64,000 nt of DNA from an uncultured Hyphomicrobiales bacterium (GCA_964458605.1 CAYWLS010000016.1:29620-93619); one strand, 5' to 3'; positions 43,865 to 63,718 are shown, counted from the stretch's first letter. The notes: generated by a model not told the origin, from the sequence alone. Numbers and translations: made by a program.

Positions 43865-44977
43865 ATGGAAGTCCGCGCCGCGGTGGCGTTCGAAGCCGGC
43901 AAGCCGCTCAGCATCGAAACGGTGAAGCTCGAGGGGCCGCGCGCCGGCGAGGTGCTGGTCGAGATCAAGGCCACCGGCGTCTGCCACACCGACGCCTATA
44001 CCCTGTCGGGACTGGATTCGGAGGGCAAGTTCCCCTGCATCCTGGGCCATGAAGGCGCCGGCATCGTGGTCGATATCGGCCCCGGCGTAACCAGCGTCAA
44101 GAAGGGCGACCACGTCATCCCGCTCTACACGCCCGAATGCCGGCAGTGCAAATCCTGCCTCAGCCGCAAGACCAATCTGTGCACCGCGATCCGCACCACC
44201 CAGGGCCAGGGCGTGATGCCGGACGGCAGCTCGCGCTTCTCGCGCGACGGCCGGCCGCTCTGGCACTACATGGGCACCTCGACCTTCGCCAACTACACCG
44301 TGCTGCCGGAGATCGCGGTGGCCAGGATCCGGCCCGACGCGCCGTTCGACAAGGTCTGCTATATCGGCTGCGGCGTCACCACCGGCATCGGCGCGGTGAT
44401 CTGGACCGCCAAGGTGACGCCGGGCGCCAATGTGGTGGTGTTCGGCCTGGGCGGCATCGGGCTGAACGTGATCCAGGGCGCGCGGCTGGCCGGCGCCGAC
44501 AAGATCGTCGGCGTCGACATCAACCCGGCGCGCCGCGCCATGGCCGAGAAATTCGGCATGACCCATTTCGTCGATCCGCGCGACATGAAGGAAGAGGAGC
44601 TGGTGCCCTACCTGGTCGAGCTGACCGATGGCGGCGCCGATTTCAGCTTCGAGTGCATCGGCAACACCAAGACCATGCGCCAGGCGCTGGAATGCTGCCA
44701 TCGCGGCTGGGGCCAGTCGATCATCATCGGCGTGGCGCCGTCGGGCACCGAGATCGCCACGAGGCCGTTCCAGCTCGTCACCGGGCGGGTCTGGAAGGGC
44801 TCGGCCTTCGGCGGGGCGCGCGGCCGCACCGATGTGCCCAAGATCGTCGACTGGTACATGGAGGGCAAGATCAACATCGACGATCTGATCACCCATGTCA
44901 TGCCGCTGGAGAAGATCAACGATGCCTTCGACCTTATGCATGAAGGCAAGTCGATCCGCTCCGTGGTCACCTTCTGA
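43865..44977 (+). CDS. frmA: S-(hydroxymethyl)glutathione dehydrogenase / class III alcohol dehydrogenase
   Basis: GVCHTDAYTLSGLDSEGKFPCILGHEGAGIV, CRQCKSCLSRKTNLC and GLGGIGL are typical of GSH-dependent formaldehyde dehydrogenase. Confidence 0.9.
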   Translation: MEVRAAVAFEAGKPLSIETVKLEGPRAGEVLVEIKATGVCHTDAYTLSGLDSEGKFPCILGHEGAGIVVDIGPGVTSVKKGDHVIPLYTPECRQCKSCLSRKTNLCTAIRTTQGQGVMPDGSSRFSRDGRPLWHYMGTSTFANYTVLPEIAVARIRPDAPFDKVCYIGCGVTTGIGAVIWTAKVTPGANVVVFGLGGIGLNVIQGARLAGADKIVGVDINPARRAMAEKFGMTHFVDPRDMKEEELVPYLVELTDGGADFSFECIGNTKTMRQALECCHRGWGQSIIIGVAPSGTEIATRPFQLVTGRVWKGSAFGGARGRTDVPKIVDWYMEGKINIDDLITHVMPLEKINDAFDLMHEGKSIRSVVTF

Positions 44978-44990
44978 ACGGAATTTGACG

Positions 44991-45707
44991 ATGCAACCGC
45001 AACCCAACGTGCCCCATTCCACCGCCGAGACCGACGACATGGTGCTGCAGCGCCTGCTCGACGGCCGCTATAGCTGCCGCGCCTTCCAGCCGCGGCAGGT
45101 GCCGCGCGACGTGATCGAGCGCCTGCTGGTGCTGGCGCAGCGCACGCCGTCCTGGTGCAACACCCAGCCCTGGCACCTGCACATCACCAGCGGCGCGGCG
45201 ACCGACCGCTTCCGCGACGCCTTCTACAAATTCATGCAGGGCAATCCCGCCCCGCAGAGCGACATCCCGCCGCCGCGCGAATATCGCGGCATCTCGCTGG
45301 CGCGACGGCGCGAATGCGGCGCGGCGCTCTACGAATCGGTCGGCATCGCCCGCGGCGACAAGGAGGCCTATGCGCGCCAGGCGCTGGAGAATTTCCGCCT
45401 GTTCGGCGCGCCGCATGTCGCCATCATCACCACCGACGAGCCGCTGGGCGCCTATGGCGCGGTCGATGTCGGCGCCTATGTCAGCACTTTCCTGCTGGCC
45501 GCCCAGTCGCTGGGCCTGTCGAGCATTCCCCAGGCGGCGCTGGCGATCTATGGCGGCGGCTTCGTGCGCGACTATTTCAAGATCGCCGAGGACCGCATCC
45601 TGGTGTGCGGCATTTCCTTCGGCTACGGCGATTCCAGCCATCCGATCAACCAGTTCCGCACCACCCGCGCCGCGCCCGAAGAGGCAGCGACGTTCCACGA
45701 CACCTGA
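44991..45707 (+). CDS. nitroreductase family protein
   Basis: Met33 of ORF 44895..45707. Motifs RYSCRAFQPRQVPRDVIERLLVLAQRTPSWCNTQPW. Confidence 0.8.
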   Translation: MQPQPNVPHSTAETDDMVLQRLLDGRYSCRAFQPRQVPRDVIERLLVLAQRTPSWCNTQPWHLHITSGAATDRFRDAFYKFMQGNPAPQSDIPPPREYRGISLARRRECGAALYESVGIARGDKEAYARQALENFRLFGAPHVAIITTDEPLGAYGAVDVGAYVSTFLLAAQSLGLSSIPQAALAIYGGGFVRDYFKIAEDRILVCGISFGYGDSSHPINQFRTTRAAPEEAATFHDT

Positions 45708-45722
45708 AGCGACGGGGCGATC

Positions 45723-46574
45723 ATGGAGTTGATCAGGCAATGGCGCTGCTTCGGCGGCCGGCAGCAGCTATGGCAGCATCGCTCGGCGGCGCTGGACTGC
45801 CCCATGCAGTTCGCCGTCTACCTGCCGCCCCAGGTCGCCGGCAGCAGCACCACCAACGGCGCCGTACCGCCGGTGCTGTATTTCCTGTCCGGCCTGACCT
45901 GCACCTGGGAGAATTTCACCGCCAAGGCCGGCGCCCAGCGCTATGCCGCGCAGCACGGGCTGGCGCTGGTGATGCCCGACACCTCGCCGCGCGGCATCGA
46001 CCTGCCGGGCCAGGACGACAGCTACGATTTCGGCTCGGGCGCCGGCTTCTATGTCGATGCCACCCAGCCGCCCTGGTCGAAGCACTATCGGATGTATTCC
46101 TACGTCACCGAGGAGCTGCCGGCGCTGGTCGCCCGGCACCTACCGGTCGATGCCACGCGCAGCAGCATCGCCGGCCATTCGATGGGCGGCCATGGCGCGC
46201 TGGTCGCTGCGTTCCGCAACCCGCAGCGCTATCGCGCGGTCTCGGCTCTGGCGCCGATCGTGGCGCCCAGCCAGGTGCCGTGGGGCGTCAAGGCCTTCGC
46301 CGGCTATCTCGGCGAGGATCGCGCGCACTGGGCGCCATACGATGCCACGGCGCTGGCTGCCACCACGACATGGCGCCGGCCGATCCTGATCGACCAGGGC
46401 GGCGCCGACGAGTTCCTCGATAGCCAGCTCAAGCCGCAGCTGCTGGTCGAGGCCTGCGCCAAAGCCGGCATCGCGCTCGATTACCGCCAGCACGACGGCT
46501 ACGACCACAGCTATTATTTCATCGCCAGCTTCATCGGCGATCACATCGCCTTCCATGCCCGGGCGCTGGCGTGA
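45723..46574 (+). CDS. fghA: S-formylglutathione hydrolase (esterase D)
   Basis: FAVYLPPQ, YFLSGLTCTWENF and GHSMGGHGAL, plus HDGYDHSYYFI, typical of FghA/FrmB. Confidence 0.9.
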   Translation: MELIRQWRCFGGRQQLWQHRSAALDCPMQFAVYLPPQVAGSSTTNGAVPPVLYFLSGLTCTWENFTAKAGAQRYAAQHGLALVMPDTSPRGIDLPGQDDSYDFGSGAGFYVDATQPPWSKHYRMYSYVTEELPALVARHLPVDATRSSIAGHSMGGHGALVAAFRNPQRYRAVSALAPIVAPSQVPWGVKAFAGYLGEDRAHWAPYDATALAATTTWRRPILIDQGGADEFLDSQLKPQLLVEACAKAGIALDYRQHDGYDHSYYFIASFIGDHIAFHARALA

Positions 46575-46614
46575 GCGGTGGGGCGCCGGCCAGCGCGGCC
46601 GGCTTAAAGCGCCT

Positions 46615-47157
46615 TCACGGCGGCGTCAGGCCAAGCTGCGGAGCCCGCTCGCTGGCATAGCGCATATAGCTCGCCATGAGGGACCGCAACGTGGCGACCT
46701 CGCCCGCCGACAATGTCGGATGGTAGACTTTGCCCTCGCCGCGCATGGCCGAAAGGTTATTGCCGAAGAACAGCTTGTCGTAGATTGACGCGGTCGCGCC
46801 GGACTCCAACGAGGCCATGTCGCCAGCCAACGAGGCGACAAGATCCTCCAGCAGATTCCAGCCTTCGAGGAGAATGGCGCAGGTGCCGGCTGCAAGACGC
46901 CGCTGCGGCGCCAGCGCCGCCAGTGCTGACAGGAATTCGTCCAGGTCGAATTCCGCGGCTTCATCCCAATGAACCGTGTCGGACGAGCCGGGGTTCAGCT
47001 TGCGTCGCATCTGCGGCATCGATTCGGCCGACAACAGCTCGCCAGTCGGCAGCAGCAGGAACGAGTCCCGCTCCGCCTCGCCGGTCGACCACATCAGAAT
47101 CGTGTCGCCACCGCGACAGCGGAGCGTATAGGGATAAATGTCTCTAGGTTCCGTCAT
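46615..47157 (-). CDS. hypothetical protein (180 aa), no recognisable family
   Basis: Full ORF with ordinary amino-acid composition; the first gene of the lower-GC islet. Confidence 0.5.
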   Translation of the reverse strand: MTEPRDIYPYTLRCRGGDTILMWSTGEAERDSFLLLPTGELLSAESMPQMRRKLNPGSSDTVHWDEAAEFDLDEFLSALAALAPQRRLAAGTCAILLEGWNLLEDLVASLAGDMASLESGATASIYDKLFFGNNLSAMRGEGKVYHPTLSAGEVATLRSLMASYMRYASERAPQLGLTPP

Positions 47158-47181
47158 CTGGCGCCGCTCGCACCGAACACC

Positions 47182-47439
47182 TCATCCCAATTCGAGCGCC
47201 TCCGCTTCGGTGCCGGCGACGAAGCAAAACTGCCGGAAGAAATCGTCGACCACAAAGACCTCGTGATCGACGGCCTCAACGTCGCCCAATCCGCCGAAGC
47301 TGGGCGTCAGACGAACCGATTCCAGTCGATAAACCAGCGCATCGTAACCCGCACCCGCGTCCAGCGCCCTGATCTCGACACGAAATCGCAGGGTTGCTCC
47401 GCCTCCGGAACGATCTCCTGCAGATCGACCACCCGGCAT
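47182..47439 (-). CDS. small hypothetical protein, start or frame uncertain
   Basis: An 85-aa ORF. The overlapping 60-aa ORF 47307..47489 in another frame has a plausible N-terminus (MHVKATVCRVVDLQEIVPEAEQ) that would read on into TLRFRVEIRALDAG... after a 1-nt shift. Confidence 0.35.
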   Translation of the reverse strand: MPGGRSAGDRSGGGATLRFRVEIRALDAGAGYDALVYRLESVRLTPSFGGLGDVEAVDHEVFVVDDFFRQFCFVAGTEAEALELG

Positions 47440-47495
47440 ACCGTCGCCTTCACGTGCATGGCATCGCGCCGTCCAATCGCGGCGTGCACGGCGCT

Positions 47496-47999
47496 CTACA
47501 ACTCAATCTTTTCATATATCGCATCGATTCTTTGTTTAAAGCCGGCTTCCCTGCCAGAAGTTTTTTTCCTCAAGATATCGATCGCCATGAGAACGCCGAC
47601 CTTCTGGAATCTCGAATGGGCACGTACCGACAATTCGTCGATCGCATCCAGCGCCGTCTCCCCCTCGTAAGATCGCGCAACGAAATCGCCGACAACAAAA
47701 CAAAGCGTTTCGCCTTCATAGTTCGGATAATTCTCAATCAGGATCTTCAACAAATCGGCTTTCTGCGATTGCGACAATAAATCCAACGACCAATGCAATT
47801 CAAAAAGGAAAGATTCGATGCTTTCCGTATTGCGGAGCTCCGGATCGGATAGAGTCTCAACCGCAAATTCGAAGTAATCCGCCGACAGCGTCTTTTGCAG
47901 TAACAGCCCCTCCGAAAAAGCGTCGACCAGATCTCTCAAGACAGCGCCAGGCTCGCGCACCCGTTGTTTCAATTGTTGCGACAGCTCTTTACCGGTCAT
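47496..47999 (-). CDS. hypothetical all-alpha protein (167 aa), no recognisable family
   Basis: An ORF in the most AT-rich part of the window. Leu/Glu-rich helical composition with no motifs recognised. Confidence 0.55.
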   Translation of the reverse strand: MTGKELSQQLKQRVREPGAVLRDLVDAFSEGLLLQKTLSADYFEFAVETLSDPELRNTESIESFLFELHWSLDLLSQSQKADLLKILIENYPNYEGETLCFVVGDFVARSYEGETALDAIDELSVRAHSRFQKVGVLMAIDILRKKTSGREAGFKQRIDAIYEKIEL

Positions 48000-48071
48000 C
48001 CGTTAGCCGCCTTCCTAACAAAGTCCCGGCGGGACGCAGCCCGCTCTTCCGCCAAAGGTCGGCGAACTCCG

Positions 48072-48485
48072 TCAAAAAAAGGAAAGAGTAAGCCTTACGG
48101 GAACGCCTATATGCGCCAATCGCGACATTTGCATCGGACTGATCTCGAACTCATGTGTCTTTTCGCATCCTCCAGCGACGAAAATATCGATATAGGCCTC
48201 CTCCAGCCCCTTTATCGTGCAGATCTTTCCGGTATCGAAATCGATCTTCGCCAGGAATGCCTCGATATGGTCCGCCAAACGATCCGAGCACGGCTCGGGC
48301 TTGGCTTTGAGATTCCATATCCCGATTTTCCTGACGTATTTTCGGCCTTCCTTGCCGAACTGCACCTGCCCCTTGAACTGGCCGTAGTCCGGCTTTTTGC
48401 CAAGCACCTCCGAAGCTACGCTCGGATCGAGGCTATCTCCACGAAGCCACAAGCCGACGGAAATCGCATATTTTGATTCAGGCAT
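48072..48485 (-). CDS. DUF4279-like small protein (tentative)
   Basis: Start at Met28 of ORF 48072..48566 (MPESKYAISVGLWLRGDSLDPSVASEVLGKKPDY...). Length and pattern resemble my recollection of DUF4279. Confidence 0.45.
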   Translation of the reverse strand: MPESKYAISVGLWLRGDSLDPSVASEVLGKKPDYGQFKGQVQFGKEGRKYVRKIGIWNLKAKPEPCSDRLADHIEAFLAKIDFDTGKICTIKGLEEAYIDIFVAGGCEKTHEFEISPMQMSRLAHIGVPVRLTLSFF

Positions 48486-48584
48486 TTTTTGCTCCAAAAT
48501 ATCGGATCGGTGTATCCAGCCTGCATCGACATGCTTACCCGCCGTCCGGGTGCCGCCACCAGTCAAGGCCTAGTCAGGGCCTGG

Positions 48585-48761
48585 CTACAGGCTCTCCGAG
48601 AAGCCCCTCAACGCATTGATCAGCGTGCACACTTCGTGCTTGGCCAATTCAACCGGGTCGCCATATCTGTCGCGAGCGATCAGGCTTATTGCGCCACCTT
48701 CATTGATCCAGATCCGGACATCGCTGCCAAAAAGCTCTCGGCTGCGTCCATCATTCGACAT
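48585..48761 (-). CDS. small hypothetical protein (58 aa from Met19)
   Basis: ORF 48585..48815. MSNDGRSRELFGSDVRIWINEGGAISLIARDRYGDPVELAKHEVCTLINAL. Confidence 0.35.
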   Translation of the reverse strand: MSNDGRSRELFGSDVRIWINEGGAISLIARDRYGDPVELAKHEVCTLINALRGFSESL

Positions 48762-48804
48762 GATCGACTCTCTCTGATTCTGCGGAGACGGACCGTCCGA
48801 CTGG

Positions 48805-49299
48805 TCACACTCCATTCCTGGCCGCTCGCACGGTCCGGCGAAGGAATGGAATCGTCCTCGCCCATACCAGCAGATAGTTCATTCCAAAAAGCCACACGAA
48901 ACTTGCGGCGACAACGATGGCTATCGTTGGCCAGGCGATCCGGTTGGCCATCGCGACCAGCGAAATAAAGACAAGCAGACCCACGGCGATTATGAACAAT
49001 CTCATCGTCGACAGGCGATAGACGACGAGAATGTCGGGACCGCGCCGCACGACTTCGAATATTCCCGAGCCGACACCGACATAGCGGAAAAACGACCACT
49101 GCATTCCGGCATCGTTCTCGAAGCGTAATGTGTTTTGCCGCCGAACCGACTTTATGCCTTGAGCCTCAAGGTCCTTCGCGATCGACTCCAAAATTGCGTC
49201 CGACGCCGAAGCCGGAAGATTTCCGCCCTTTATCTGGCCCTTGATTTCGACGAGCCACATCGCCTCGAGATCGACGTCGGTGTCAGCGGATTTCCTCAT
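48805..49299 (-). CDS. hypothetical membrane protein (soluble N-domain plus two C-terminal TM helices)
   Basis: Hydrophobic segments LFIIAVGLLVFISLVAMA and WPTIAIVVAASFVWLFGMNYLLVWA. Confidence 0.5.
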   Translation of the reverse strand: MRKSADTDVDLEAMWLVEIKGQIKGGNLPASASDAILESIAKDLEAQGIKSVRRQNTLRFENDAGMQWSFFRYVGVGSGIFEVVRRGPDILVVYRLSTMRLFIIAVGLLVFISLVAMANRIAWPTIAIVVAASFVWLFGMNYLLVWARTIPFLRRTVRAARNGV

Positions 49300-49407
49300 C
49301 TGGTTGTCGAGGATAACTCAAATGCAACTGCGAGCGCCAGCCATCCAGGGCAGCACGGACACCGCTTCGCTCAGTCTCGGCAGGCAGGGAAAAGCATTGG
49401 GGGCGAG

Positions 49408-49483
49408 TGGTGCCCAGGGCCGGAATCGAACCAGCGACACTGCGATTTTCAGTCGCATGCTCTACCAACTGAGCTACCTGGGC
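49408..49483 (-). tRNA. tRNA-Phe (anticodon GAA), CCA encoded
   Basis: The reverse complement reads GCCCAGGTAGCTCAGTTGGTAGAGCATGCGACTGAAAATCGCAGTGTCGCTGGTTCGATTCCGGCCCTGGGCACCA. It has a 7-bp acceptor stem, a CT-GAA-AA anticodon loop and the GGTTCGATTCC T-arm. Confidence 0.95.
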
Positions 49484-60559: not shown

Positions 60560-61327
60560 ATGGCCTTGTTCAAACGCGGCGAATCGGGCGCCAGGCGCGG
60601 CCGCACCCTGGAAGTCGGCTGGATCGTCCAGCCCGGCGCGGCCTCGGCCGTCTGGTTCGAGCCGCAGCAGTTCCGGCGCGAGAGCGGTCCGCCGCCCTCG
60701 GCCAAGGCGGTGCAGAACTGTCCCGCGGTGATCGATTTCGACGCCCGCCATTTCGTCGTGCCCTGCCCGGTCGATCTCAACATCGCCCTGGCAAAGGACA
60801 AGGACGGCAAGGTGGTGCTGCGCAATCTCGACGGCGCGCAGAGCGCGGTGGCCGCCTCGCACATTCCCAAGCTGGTGCATCTCAATTCGCCCAACCAGTG
60901 GCGCCATCCCGAGCGGCCGATCATCCAGATGTCCACGCCCTATCGCTTCGTGGCCGACGAGCGCTGCTTCATGAACCAGTTGCCGCCGTTCCTGCATTTC
61001 CGGCGCGAGGCCTGGCCCGGCACCATGATCGCCGGCCGCTTCCAGCTCGACGTGTGGCCGCGCATCATGATGTGGGCGTTCGAATGGATGGACCCGTCGC
61101 GGCCGCTCGCCCTGCGCCGCGGCGAGCCGTGGTTCTATCTGCGCTTCGAGCCGGGCGACGACAGCGACCGGCCGGTGCGCATGGTCGAGGCGGAATGGAC
61201 GCCCGAGCTCGAGCAGTACTGCCAGAGCATCGACGGCGTCACCAACTACGTGAAGCGCACCTTCTCGCTGTTCCCGCTGGCCGCCAAACGCCGCCCGGCC
61301 AAGCTGCTGAAGAAGAAGGAGCGGTAG
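60560..61327 (+). CDS. conserved hypothetical protein (255 aa), no recognisable family
   Basis: Met126 of ORF 60185..61327. Normal composition, with a basic tail AKRRPAKLLKKKER. Confidence 0.55.
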   Translation: MALFKRGESGARRGRTLEVGWIVQPGAASAVWFEPQQFRRESGPPPSAKAVQNCPAVIDFDARHFVVPCPVDLNIALAKDKDGKVVLRNLDGAQSAVAASHIPKLVHLNSPNQWRHPERPIIQMSTPYRFVADERCFMNQLPPFLHFRREAWPGTMIAGRFQLDVWPRIMMWAFEWMDPSRPLALRRGEPWFYLRFEPGDDSDRPVRMVEAEWTPELEQYCQSIDGVTNYVKRTFSLFPLAAKRRPAKLLKKKER

Positions 61328-61905
61328 CTGGGGCTGCTCTCTCGCACCATAGATCTAGCCGGGACCAAGATCGGCGCTGGCCAAGCAAACTCCCGCGCCA
61401 TAGCCGACGCCTCCACAAGCTTTCCATTGTCTGACGTGCAAAACACAATGCCATTGTCTCTCAACAAGACATGGGCTTGATGGTCGACGGACAATACATA
61501 CCCGGACCAATCGAACGTCAGCATAAGAAAAACCAACCCGCTCAAAATCGCGCTCTCTTCCTCTTTATAAAAATCATCAGAATCGCCAACGAATTTCTCA
61601 AACAAATGGCATGGCGCCTGCCCAAGAGGCCTGGTTTCGCCGCAGCCATTGCGTATTTTCTCGAACAGAACGACGGCCTGCGCCGGATAGGCCGACCAGA
61701 CAGATGGCCAAAGCGCTCTGTAGTGCCCATCCGGAAGCCATTGGGCGAGGCGCGCGGCAAACCGCGCGATCTGCAGCGGCGCGGATGGCAAATCGACAGC
61801 GACGCGATAGCCAACCTTGGCAAAGTTCAGGTCACCATCGTCGGCGATGGTGACGCCAGATCTATGAAACAAATCTTCGCATTGTTGGCGCGAAAAGCAT
61901 TTCAT
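61246..61905 (-). CDS. hypothetical protein (219 aa) in a low-GC patch
   Basis: The ORF's last ~27 codons run into the 3' end of the convergent gene (82-nt overlap). No family recognised. Confidence 0.45.
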   Translation of the reverse strand: MKCFSRQQCEDLFHRSGVTIADDGDLNFAKVGYRVAVDLPSAPLQIARFAARLAQWLPDGHYRALWPSVWSAYPAQAVVLFEKIRNGCGETRPLGQAPCHLFEKFVGDSDDFYKEEESAILSGLVFLMLTFDWSGYVLSVDHQAHVLLRDNGIVFCTSDNGKLVEASAMAREFAWPAPILVPARSMVRESSPSYRSFFFSSLAGRRLAASGNSEKVRFT

Positions 61906-61918
61906 TCATCGCCTCGCT

Positions 61919-63718
61919 TCAAGCCGCCTTCGGCAAGCCCCTGGCCAGCGCCGCCGGCACCTGGATCGGCATGTCGAGCAGCATCTGGGCATAGGCCTTG
62001 CCCTGCGGGTCGGCCTGCAGCGAGGCCACGCCGCCGCCGCCCAGCGCGCTGCGCAGCAGGAAGTTGAAGCCGCCGATGCCCGGCAGCGCCCAGCGGCTGA
62101 CCATGCCCTTGACGCGATGCGCCATGTACCGCGCCACACTCGCCTCGGTCACCTGGGCGGCGATGATCGGCAGGTATTCCGGCTTGCGCGCGATGATGCC
62201 GATATTGCAGCTATCGCCCTTGTCGCCGCTGCGGCCATAGGCCAGCGCCACCAGCGGCACGCTGACCGCGTCGCCTGCAATGGCTTCCGGCTGGGGCGGC
62301 GCGTCGGCCGGCAGCATGTCGGGCGAGAAGCCGCCCTCGGCCGGGATCGTCACGTCGATGCGCCTGCCGTCGATATCGACCGTCACCGGCACCATGTTCT
62401 TGGGCACCAGGCAGGAGAACAGGCGGATCAGCGGGCCCGGCGTGGCGCGGCCGCCGCCCAGGAAGCCGGTCATGCCCGGCACGCCGCCGGTGCCCATCGG
62501 CGCGATCTCGCGGCCCAGAATGGTCAGCGCCTCCTTCTGGTCGTGCTTGGCGGCGATCTTCATCACCACCTCGCGCGATCCGGCATGGGCGTGCGGCCCG
62601 TAGGTGGTCTCCGCGCCGATCGCCTCGATCGTCACTTCCTTGTAGTCGCCCAGGTTGCGCTCGCGGAACATGCGGCGCGTGCGCTTGACGATGGCCTCGG
62701 CGATATGGGCGCCCTTCTTCGCCGCCGCGATGCCGCCGATCATGAACACGGCGGTCAGCTTGAAGCCGTCGACATAGGTGGCCGAGGTCTTGTAGGTCGA
62801 ACTGGGCGGCAGGCCGCGCGCGCCCGACACGCGCACCACGTCCGGGCCGGTCTGCTCCATCTTCACCCTGGTGAAGTCGCAGGTGACGTCGGGCAGCATA
62901 TAGGCGCGCGGATCGCCGATCTCGTACAGCATCTGCTCGCCCACCGTGGCCGGCGTGATCAGCCCGCCGGTGCCGGGCGGTTTGGAGATGGTGAAATTGC
63001 CGTCGCTGTCGACCTCGGCGATCGGGAAGCCGATATTGTCGAAATCGGGCACGAGCTGCCAGTCGGTGAAGTTGCCGCCGTTGCACTGCGCGCCGCATTC
63101 GACGATGTGCCCGGCCAGCGAGCCCATCGCCAGCCGGTCGTAGTCGTCCGCCTGCCAGCCGAATTCGTGGATCAGCGCGCCCAGCACCAGCGCGCTATCG
63201 ACGCAGCGGCCGGTGATCACCACATCGGCGCCCTCGGCCAGCGCGCGGGCGATCGGCAGCCCGCCCAGATAGGCGTTCATGCTGACCAGGGATTTGGGCA
63301 AGGTCTCGGCGCTGTCCAGTTCGACGATGCCGGCGGCGCGCAATTCGTCGGCGCGCGGCGCCAGGTCGTCGCCCAGCACCGCCGCCACCTTCAAGGTCAC
63401 GCCGGCCGCCGCGGCTGCTTTCAGCACCGCGTCGCGGCAGGAAAGCGGATTGACGCCGCCGGCATTGGTGATGACCTTGATCTTCTTCTCGGCGATCTCG
63501 CGCGCCAGCGGCGCCATGACATGGCTGACGAAATCGGTGGCATAGCCCGAGTCCGGCTTCTTCAGCCGCATGCCGGCCATGATCGACATGGTGATCTCGG
63601 CCAGGTAGTCGTTGACCAGGTAGTCGATATTGCCGCCGCGCACCAGTTGCGGCGCCGCCGTTTCGGTGTCGCCCCAGAAGCCCGAACTGCAGCCGATGCG
63701 AACCTTCTTCTCGCTCAT
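61919..63718 (-). CDS. atuA: AtuA-like (DUF1446, acyclic terpene utilisation) protein with C-terminal extension
   Basis: The pattern MSEKKVRIGCSSGFWGDTETAAPQLVRGGNIDYLVNDYLAEITMSIM...VITGRCVDSALV...HIVECGAQCNGGNF matches my recollection of AtuA/DUF1446. Confidence 0.75.
   Translation of the reverse strand: MSEKKVRIGCSSGFWGDTETAAPQLVRGGNIDYLVNDYLAEITMSIMAGMRLKKPDSGYATDFVSHVMAPLAREIAEKKIKVITNAGGVNPLSCRDAVLKAAAAAGVTLKVAAVLGDDLAPRADELRAAGIVELDSAETLPKSLVSMNAYLGGLPIARALAEGADVVITGRCVDSALVLGALIHEFGWQADDYDRLAMGSLAGHIVECGAQCNGGNFTDWQLVPDFDNIGFPIAEVDSDGNFTISKPPGTGGLITPATVGEQMLYEIGDPRAYMLPDVTCDFTRVKMEQTGPDVVRVSGARGLPPSSTYKTSATYVDGFKLTAVFMIGGIAAAKKGAHIAEAIVKRTRRMFRERNLGDYKEVTIEAIGAETTYGPHAHAGSREVVMKIAAKHDQKEALTILGREIAPMGTGGVPGMTGFLGGGRATPGPLIRLFSCLVPKNMVPVTVDIDGRRIDVTIPAEGGFSPDMLPADAPPQPEAIAGDAVSVPLVALAYGRSGDKGDSCNIGIIARKPEYLPIIAAQVTEASVARYMAHRVKGMVSRWALPGIGGFNFLLRSALGGGGVASLQADPQGKAYAQMLLDMPIQVPAALARGLPKAA

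Follow-up and report, generated by a model that had tools for sequence, protein, structure and literature searches.

A six-gene low-GC islet beside tRNA-Phe in an uncultured Hyphomicrobiales bacterium, probably an old and eroding array of orphan immunity genes

A stretch of 64,000 nucleotides from an uncultured Hyphomicrobiales bacterium (GCA_964458605.1, CAYWLS010000016.1:29620-93619; hereafter the window, with positions counted from its first letter) carries an islet of about 2.7 kb in which six small open reading frames (ORF1 to ORF6, numbered from the fghA side), all on the minus strand, occupy the interval between tRNA-Phe and fghA. The islet is probably an ancient array, horizontally acquired and now slowly eroding, of orphan genes that would each confer immunity to Rhs-type polymorphic toxins on their own. 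By sequence comparison, homology to an immunity family or to genes in immunity position was obtained for three of the six genes, namely ORF4, ORF1 and, weakly, ORF2. A first-pass annotation, made from the sequence alone, had likened the islet to an array of orphan immunity-type genes; this description suits these three genes, and for ORF3, ORF5 and ORF6 no family match was found.

ORF4 (48072-48485; 137 aa from its ATG, or 164 aa when a TTG start is taken mechanically) matches the Pfam family DUF4279 (PF14106) with an E value of 7e-8 and 33.2 bits against a gathering cut-off of 25, covering model positions 2-112 of 116, and the resemblance to DUF4279 seen in the first pass is thereby borne out. 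In the literature DUF4279 goes under the name FdL-Imm5 and is placed among the ferredoxin-like immunity families that accompany polymorphic toxins (PMC9424270); it was also predicted to be the immunity partner of an Rhs-Ntox33 effector of the Salmonella pathogenicity island SPI-19 (PMC13304343). The nearest plasmid relative of ORF4 (about 22% identity) is the DUF4279 gene of Rhizobium sophoriradicis pCC511_1, whose sequence shares 8 nt with the 3' end of the gene for a 1551-aa RHS core-domain protein. A PDB sequence search with ORF4 gave nothing significant. ORF4 is accordingly named here as a predicted polymorphic-toxin immunity protein, which shares with DUF4279/FdL-Imm5 a nearly full-length model match and differs in having no adjacent toxin in the window.

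ORF1 (46615-47157, 180 aa) looked like an orphan as long as it was searched with a word-indexed method, which gave only 6 clusters; an exhaustive profile search then recovered 957 representative clusters at E <= 1e-3, and 595 at E <= 1e-10. Members of the family are stand-alone proteins of about 165-185 aa in which residues W23, D31, W100, N101, D105, Y126, K128, F130, G132, N134, L135, P147 and E153 (ORF1 numbering) are nearly invariant. None of 111 family members matched any Pfam family, and the family profile retrieved nothing significant from PDB sequences. The AlphaFold2 (AF2) model of ORF1 is confident (predicted local distance difference test, pLDDT, 89; predicted template modelling score, pTM, 0.85), and a Foldseek comparison of this model with the PDB gave no fold match (TM-score <= 0.26). 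Relatives of ORF1 in metagenomes were searched with a 20-sequence subset of the family alignment, the 111-sequence alignment being too diverse for this purpose.

Members of the ORF1 family occupy Rhs-immunity positions at other loci. At locus L093, the end of an Rhs core (NNPINWADPKGL) and a C-terminal domain of about 130 aa stop 15 nt before an ORF1-like gene, and at locus L104 a truncated Rhs protein with the same tail as in L093 (GSEYSKIKK[HN]CERG, then the stop) ends 7 nt before another. Since this Rhs C-terminal domain is found directly 5' of ORF1-like genes at two independent loci, the domain and the ORF1-like protein are a candidate new toxin-immunity pair. At locus L095, an Rhs core end with a Cys-rich C-terminal domain is followed by a gene of 139 aa and then by an ORF1-like gene, and a second large RHS protein (E 1.8e-58) is encoded on the other strand. 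The fourth case is the Thiodictyon plasmid pTs485, where the order is RHS core protein, hypothetical protein, insertion sequence, hypothetical protein, ORF1-like protein, MafI-family immunity protein, DUF1493 protein, hypothetical protein and ankyrin protein.

Some further features of these loci were recorded. The Rhs C-terminal domain with the GSEYSKIKK[HN]CERG tail (L093:1-507 and L104:1-294) has no Pfam match and is unnamed. In the pTs485 locus (L090, 228054-244511), the upstream Rhs toxin combines a glycine-zipper linker with a Cys-rich C-terminal domain. The ORF1-like gene of this locus was matched by tblastn in two pieces and is annotated as only 116 aa, and is therefore probably frameshifted. 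DUF1493 was considered as a documented immunity family and set aside, as the label comes from the annotation of the pTs485 record and found no support in the literature consulted.

ORF2 was called at 47182-47439 (85 aa). Its ancestral extent is 47182-47459, with the ancestral ATG at 47459, and the related metagenome contig L085 keeps the same start. Alignment with the intact 113-aa orthologue of another related contig, L084, shows that the window copy is missing 1 nt close to the N-terminus and 14 nt close to the C-terminus, and ORF2 of the window is probably a decaying copy of the 113-aa gene. The intact protein is 33% identical over 80 colinear amino acids (42 bits, a weak match) to the product of a 116-aa Thiodictyon gene that starts 9 nt after the RHS gene of pTs485, and the two share the motif HE[IL][FW]V.DDFF.

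The six ORFs are real genes under purifying selection. Ratios of nonsynonymous to synonymous substitution (dN/dS) were calculated by the Nei-Gojobori method against orthologues on related metagenome contigs, and amounted to 0.38 for ORF1, 0.32 for the core of ORF2, 0.32-0.36 for ORF3, 0.18 for ORF4, 0.43 for ORF5 and 0.32 for ORF6 (the last against L085), compared with 0.14-0.18 for fghA in the flank. The possibility raised in the first pass that the ORFs might lack conservation is thus contradicted by the signature of purifying selection. For the same genome pairs, dS was 0.32-0.37 in the islet against 0.27 in the flank, and the largest excess was about 2.3-fold (0.46 against 0.20). As islet dS is close to flank dS, the islet is roughly as old as the separation of these lineages, and a recent insertion is ruled out by this similarity together with the retention of parts of the islet in all relatives.

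The composition of the islet is foreign. Its G+C content (GC) is about 0.50-0.57 (z about -5); the 1-kb bins at 47-49 kb have values of 0.557 and 0.551 (z -5.0 and -5.2), taking as reference the other 62 1-kb bins of the window (mean 0.684, standard deviation 0.025). The deep trough is confined to ORF3-ORF6 (about 47400-49300) and reaches its lowest value in ORF3 (0.48); ORF1 and ORF2, at 0.61-0.63 (ORF1, 0.63), take an intermediate place. GC at third codon positions (GC3) is 0.58-0.68 in ORF2-ORF6 and 0.78 in ORF1, compared with 0.88-0.92 in the neighbouring frmA, nitroreductase, fghA and DUF3828 genes. The hand counts of the first-pass annotation (26 G+C in 47521-47580 and 40 in 46381-46440) were exact, and the sharp drop in composition that it described applies to ORF3-ORF6 but not to ORF1 and ORF2.

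Versions of the locus were collected from public metagenome assemblies, present as short contigs, and compared using blastn and alignments; one contig from the Joint Genome Institute (JGI; sample 3300056388) was compared by its gene calls. From tRNA to fghA, the window, L081, L082 and the JGI contig have the order leader, ORF6, ORF5, ORF4, ORF3, damaged ORF2 and ORF1, and the same six genes were present in independent gene calls on identical public contigs. Gene content differs in the other relatives, so that the alternative of identical genes with matching composition in all of them does not apply. L084 has no ORF6, ORF5 or ORF4, and consists of tRNA, leader, ORF3, intact ORF2, a 110-aa gene with a CxxC...CxxC pattern, a 3' stub of ORF1 and fghA. 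L087, L088 and L089, from three samples, have neither ORF6 nor ORF5, and show tRNA, leader, ORF4 with a 1-nt frameshift, an ORF3-ORF1 fusion with ORF1, and fghA; here a deletion of 785 bp joins the first 19 codons of ORF3 to the start of ORF1, and the body of ORF3 and all of ORF2 are gone. L085 is without ORF4 and ORF3, and has an intact tRNA 3' end, an insert of 920 bp, a decayed duplicate of the last ~43 nt of the tRNA, the leader, an ORF6-like gene, an ORF5-like gene and the region upstream of ORF2. In L084, the 110-aa gene (L084:1200-1532) is zinc-ribbon-like, stands in place of the first ~400 nt of ORF1, and gave rubredoxin and zinc-ribbon Pfam matches below threshold.

The stubs of ORF3 and ORF1 indicate that these relatives are deletion derivatives of a fuller, window-like ancestor, and among the copies known, that of the window is the most complete. 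None of the relatives found showed an empty tRNA-Phe/fghA junction, all four variants retaining part of the islet. Among the nearest species-level genomes, identity at fghA is at most 71% (the best being a Ferrovibrio metagenome-assembled genome, 71%), and tRNA-Phe is near fghA in none of the 11 closest loci. From the four versions of the locus, the islet is seen to be old, mosaic, ancestral and eroding.

The deletion endpoints were examined for the way in which genes were lost. Six of 10 are clearly intergenic although intergenic sequence makes up only ~16% of the islet (binomial P ~0.002, the endpoints not being fully independent). The junctions have microhomology of ~2 nt and no shared motif, and two of them cut inside genes. 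On account of the intergenic excess and of this short, motif-free microhomology, we read the variants as illegitimate deletions filtered by selection for intact remaining genes, rather than as products of cassette recombination. The endpoint of the L084 deletion (48030, from the blastn junction) adjoins a terminator-like hairpin 3' of ORF4, which was found by a consensus scan on the minus strand at 48023-48035 (GTCCCGCCGGGAC, then TTTGTT). A tandem direct repeat of 11 nt (AGGCCCTGACT / AGGCCTTGACT; 48559-48584, minus strand) was also noticed directly after the stop of ORF5, where it adjoins the L085 deletion endpoint (48584).

The tRNA-Phe(GAA) gene (49408-49483, minus strand) is the single tRNA of the 64-kb window (ARAGORN; Rfam RF00005, 71.8 bits) and its sequence is identical in L084. 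It shares its direction of transcription with the six islet genes, and its 3' end (49408) faces the islet, toward lower coordinates, which confirms the arrangement described in the first pass, with six co-directional ORFs filling the space up to fghA. A leader of ~147 nt on the same strand (49261-49407) separates the tRNA from the first islet gene and is common to all four locus versions. Over 49289-49407 it is 82-87% identical to its counterparts in L084, L087 and L085, and alignments show the window leader to be shortened by a 39-nt deletion in comparison with those of L085 and L084.

tRNA-Phe is a classic site of integrase-mediated island insertion in enterobacteria. No attachment (att) repeat was detected in the window by repeat finding, a pattern search for the tRNA 3' end that allowed 3 mismatches gave no copy, and the best Smith-Waterman score of the last 45 nt of the tRNA against 46501-49400 was 12, equal to the shuffled mean (11.9). 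In L085, 35 of the 43 nt of the duplicated tRNA-Phe 3' end are identical to the original, with a score of 22 against a shuffled maximum of 16. This structure fits a site-specific insertion into the tRNA 3' end, and tRNA-Phe thus appears to be a real insertion site in the lineage; L085 is a single contig, whose first 19 nt, those of the intact tRNA end, lie at its edge, and no integrase was found on it. The island-insertion site suggested in the first pass therefore finds support in L085 but not in the window itself, which has neither att repeat nor integrase. The islet itself may have arrived through tRNA-targeted integration. As to the L085 insert (L085:1-1046, related to window 49289-49437), its GC is ~0.53, it contains ORFs for a 65-aa protein and a 99-aa membrane protein, and it sits between a perfect tRNA-Phe 3' end (positions 1-19) and the decayed duplicate (about 930-973), with the look of an att-type scar.

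Searches against Pfam, NCBIfam, PHROG and PADLOC profiles revealed no integrase, nuclease, ATPase or mobility gene among the six islet proteins, and no recombinase was detected in these proteins, in the housekeeping flanks or in the ten largest ORFs scanned, whose products are PDH-E1-like, AMP-binding, AidB-like, HWE kinase or CLC channel proteins or have no family match. Between the islet genes, whose spacers are 24-99 nt long, neither repeated sequences nor paired inverted repeats of attC type occur. Neither a toxin nor a secretion system was found in the 64-kb window, the islet included. Six-frame translations of the islet and its variants gave no sign of Rhs remnants, the DPxGL and YD motifs occurring in none of the frames and orphan C-terminal toxin fragments being likewise absent; PAAR strings in the islet translations were rejected as chance matches in non-coding frames. 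These results agree with the first-pass annotation, which had seen no integrase, toxin, nuclease or ATPase in the islet. Lacking a toxin partner within the 64 kb, the immunity-type genes are orphans here.

The three remaining genes are restricted to the lineage. ORF3 (47496-47999, 167 aa) has only 3 clusters among 5.8 billion proteins. Its AF2 model (pLDDT 81, pTM 0.76) predicts ten helices in an all-alpha, ARM/HEAT-like repeat, for which Foldseek returned generic designed, ARM or HEAT repeats alone, none at E <= 0.001; in L087 the gene is reduced to the 19-codon stub. ORF6, with only 2 clusters among the same 5.8 billion proteins, was called at 48805-49299 (164 aa). The called ATG (49299) is not conserved, being ATC in L084, ACG in L087 and ACC in L085, and the conserved start is the ATG at 49260 (151 aa), in agreement with the JGI homologue P0007, which starts MWLVEIKG. 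The N-terminal part of the protein is predicted to be a soluble domain and the C-terminal part to cross the membrane twice (hydropathy peaks at residues ~96-118 and 121-147). ORF3 and ORF6 are thus the all-alpha and the two-transmembrane protein that the first pass had singled out. ORF5 (48585-48815, 76 aa; conserved core of 58 aa from the ATG at 48761) encodes a small soluble protein and accompanies ORF6 in all three contexts where the pair was found, as a two-gene module. Its L085 homologue has the corresponding start, MLNDGRS, with an overlap of 11 nt between its gene and the ORF6-like one.

ORF6 had no Pfam, PADLOC, NCBIfam, plasmid or viral match. The six islet proteins together gave zero matches at E <= 1 in PADLOC-DB v2, so that the small defence module also considered in the first pass received no support from this check, and no meaningful matches in NCBIfam and PHROGs. 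Neither ORF3 and ORF6 nor the ORF1 family had relatives in viral contigs, and tblastn searches of plasmids gave no match for ORF3, ORF6 or intact ORF2. The earlier statement that none of the proteins could confidently be given a family holds for the orphans ORF3, ORF5 and ORF6, but not for ORF4, a DUF4279 protein; ORF1 is no orphan either, and belongs to an unnamed family of ~960 clusters.

In the array that we propose, each small protein would be produced on its own, perhaps through transcription that begins in the leader or reads through from the co-directional tRNA, and would bind and neutralise one toxin domain coming from competitors, for example an Rhs C-terminal domain delivered by a type VI secretion system (T6SS); the host would need no toxin of its own. 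Because each gene would protect alone, genes could be kept or lost singly as the local threat changes, and such gene-wise retention and loss would produce the presence/absence patterns, frameshifts and replacements seen between strains. Expression of the islet genes and their protective function are both presumed in this scheme, and ORF3, ORF5 and ORF6 may be given an immunity role through guilt by association.

Several observations weigh against an array of immunity genes. Only 4 of about 19 ORF1-family loci are visibly linked to Rhs genes, many of those without a visible Rhs gene having <1.5 kb of flank, and other loci of the family adjoin ParE, YafQ, RelB, HicB-like, STAND NTPase or housekeeping genes. 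The match between ORF2 and the Thiodictyon gene did not appear among the results of the plasmid-wide search (E <= 0.05), and ORF2 is probably non-functional in the window. ORF3, ORF5 and ORF6 have no detectable relatives outside the lineage and no immunity-family match, and are assigned by location only. Orphan status applies to the 64-kb window, and the pseudogenes of the relatives are equally compatible with the neutral decay of useless cargo.

A rival view is that the islet is the degraded remnant of a mobile element integrated at tRNA-Phe, in which functionless cargo is being lost neutrally and the immunity likeness is simply that of usual element cargo. In favour of such a remnant are the place of the islet beside the tRNA 3' end and its foreign composition, the 920-bp insert of L085 bounded by the tRNA 3' end and its decayed duplicate, as well as the frameshifts in ORF2 (window) and ORF4 (L087, L088 and L089) and the stubs of ORF3 (L087) and ORF1 (L084). 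It is nevertheless judged unlikely, since dN/dS of 0.18-0.43 at dS of 0.3-0.6 corresponds to long-term purifying selection on five or six genes, since the 6 intergenic endpoints out of 10 suggest selection for intact remaining genes, and since the window has neither integrase nor att scar. At the opposite end of the scale, the idea that the ORFs are native genes, or spurious ones in non-coding DNA, with an incidentally low GC is barely credible: although ORF1 and ORF2 are only mildly reduced in GC and no att scar is present, GC3 is 0.2-0.3 below that of host genes with a GC z of about -5, gene content varies among relatives that are ~90% identical in the flank, and the idea is effectively refuted by dN/dS <0.45 in all genes tested and by the widespread ORF1 and ORF4 families.

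An unrecognised anti-phage, abortive-infection (Abi), toxin-antitoxin (TA) or stress module, formed especially by the ORF6-ORF5 pair and ORF3, was also considered and is held to be improbable. ORF6 and ORF5 were met together in three contexts, Abi and TA systems often pair a small membrane protein with a small soluble one, and the ParE, YafQ, RelB, HicB-like and STAND NTPase genes near ORF1-family members point in the same direction. Against such a module, ORF6, ORF5 and ORF3 have no PADLOC, Pfam, NCBIfam or PHROG match and no enzymatic or NTPase domain, the modules of the islet were lost independently of each other, which argues against a single multi-gene system, and relatives are absent from viral contigs. 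An integron-like or rAID-like cassette array whose recombinase lies elsewhere is very improbable. Its appeal lies in ORFs that are small, co-directional and mostly orphan, and in module boundaries placed just upstream of gene starts or just after stops; it is opposed by the lack of repeated or attC-like sites, the short spacers, the motif-free junctions, the two intragenic cuts and the lack of a nearby recombinase. The narrower idea of an integron, or of a cluster of attC sites lacking an integron integrase (CALIN), was ruled out by the absence of attC-like sites and repeats and by spacers that are too short.

The orphan immunity array was compared with known systems, of which the closest are the acquired interbacterial defence (AID) and recombinase-associated AID (rAID) clusters of Bacteroidales and the orphan immunity arrays of Vibrio cholerae T6SS loci (PMC12247911, PMC10470768, PMC5361080, PMC10539506). 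The islet is like them in its small, co-directional immunity-type genes without a cognate toxin nearby, in its horizontal acquisition, in a content that varies among close relatives, and in the kinship of individual genes with immunity genes that follow Rhs or T6SS toxins. It differs from rAID clusters in having no associated recombinase or repeated intergenic sequence, and from the V. cholerae arrays in not being attached to a T6SS or effector locus. Unlike both, it comprises six genes, erodes rather than grows and belongs to an uncultured alphaproteobacterial host of high GC; half of its genes have no recognisable immunity family, and its protection is a presumed one.

Rhs toxin-immunity loci with downstream orphan modules (PMC3150448, PMC3967940) resemble the islet in that homologues of ORF1, ORF2 and ORF4 are found directly after Rhs C-terminal domains, ORF1-like genes also occurring in MafI-family/ankyrin arrays. 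The islet differs from these loci in containing no Rhs gene, core fragment or orphan C-terminal toxin fragments, so that the immunity genes stand alone. With tRNA-associated islands it has in common the position at the 3' side of tRNA-Phe, the atypical composition, the variable content and, in L085, a duplicated tRNA 3' end; it is distinguished from them by the absence of an integrase, a direct repeat and mobility genes, by the intervening leader of ~147 nt, and by an age comparable to the divergence of its relatives.

A more specific proposal, which we regard as possible though rather doubtful, is that, in a free-living alphaproteobacterium, the islet works as an acquired interbacterial defence cluster that has no recombinase and includes several undescribed immunity families. 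Those families might, tentatively, comprise ORF1 (cognate to the Rhs toxin ending in GSEYSKIKK[HN]CERG), ORF2, and the true orphans ORF3 and ORF6/ORF5. It is likewise conceivable, without being favoured, that the gene-precise loss and retention between strains tracks the local toxin repertoire.

Should the orphan array be real, orphan-immunity shields would not be confined to gut Bacteroidales or to pathogen T6SS loci, and would extend to tiny recombinase-free islets of environmental Alphaproteobacteria. The analysis yields an unnamed candidate immunity family of ~170 aa (ORF1), with a confident predicted fold unmatched among solved structures. It also yields the unnamed Rhs C-terminal domain that precedes members of this family, and a further candidate family, small and represented by ORF2, in immunity position after a different Rhs toxin. 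The four natural variants of the locus show the erosion of an array gene by gene. Current ideas are extended by this reading and not overturned, and the sequences are candidates for the annotation of immunity and toxin families.

The flanks of the islet are of housekeeping type, with frmA, a nitroreductase gene and fghA on one side, and tRNA-Phe and a DUF3828 gene on the other. fghA (S-formylglutathione hydrolase; 45723-46574, plus strand; GC3 0.88), which matches Pfam Esterase in precomputed gene calls, forms the native flank and distal boundary of the islet, has 90% nucleotide identity to L084, and is convergent with ORF1 across a gap of 40 nt. The three genes frmA (S-(hydroxymethyl)glutathione dehydrogenase-like, 370 aa), the nitroreductase-family gene and fghA are co-directional (43865-46574, ending 40 nt from ORF1) and make up a cluster of formaldehyde-detoxification type. 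In the nearest Ferrovibrio locus, frmA and fghA abut without an intervening nitroreductase gene. Away from the islet, the 1-kb bin at 61001-62000 has the second-lowest GC of the window (0.607 against the mean of 0.684), and may be another small segment of atypical composition.

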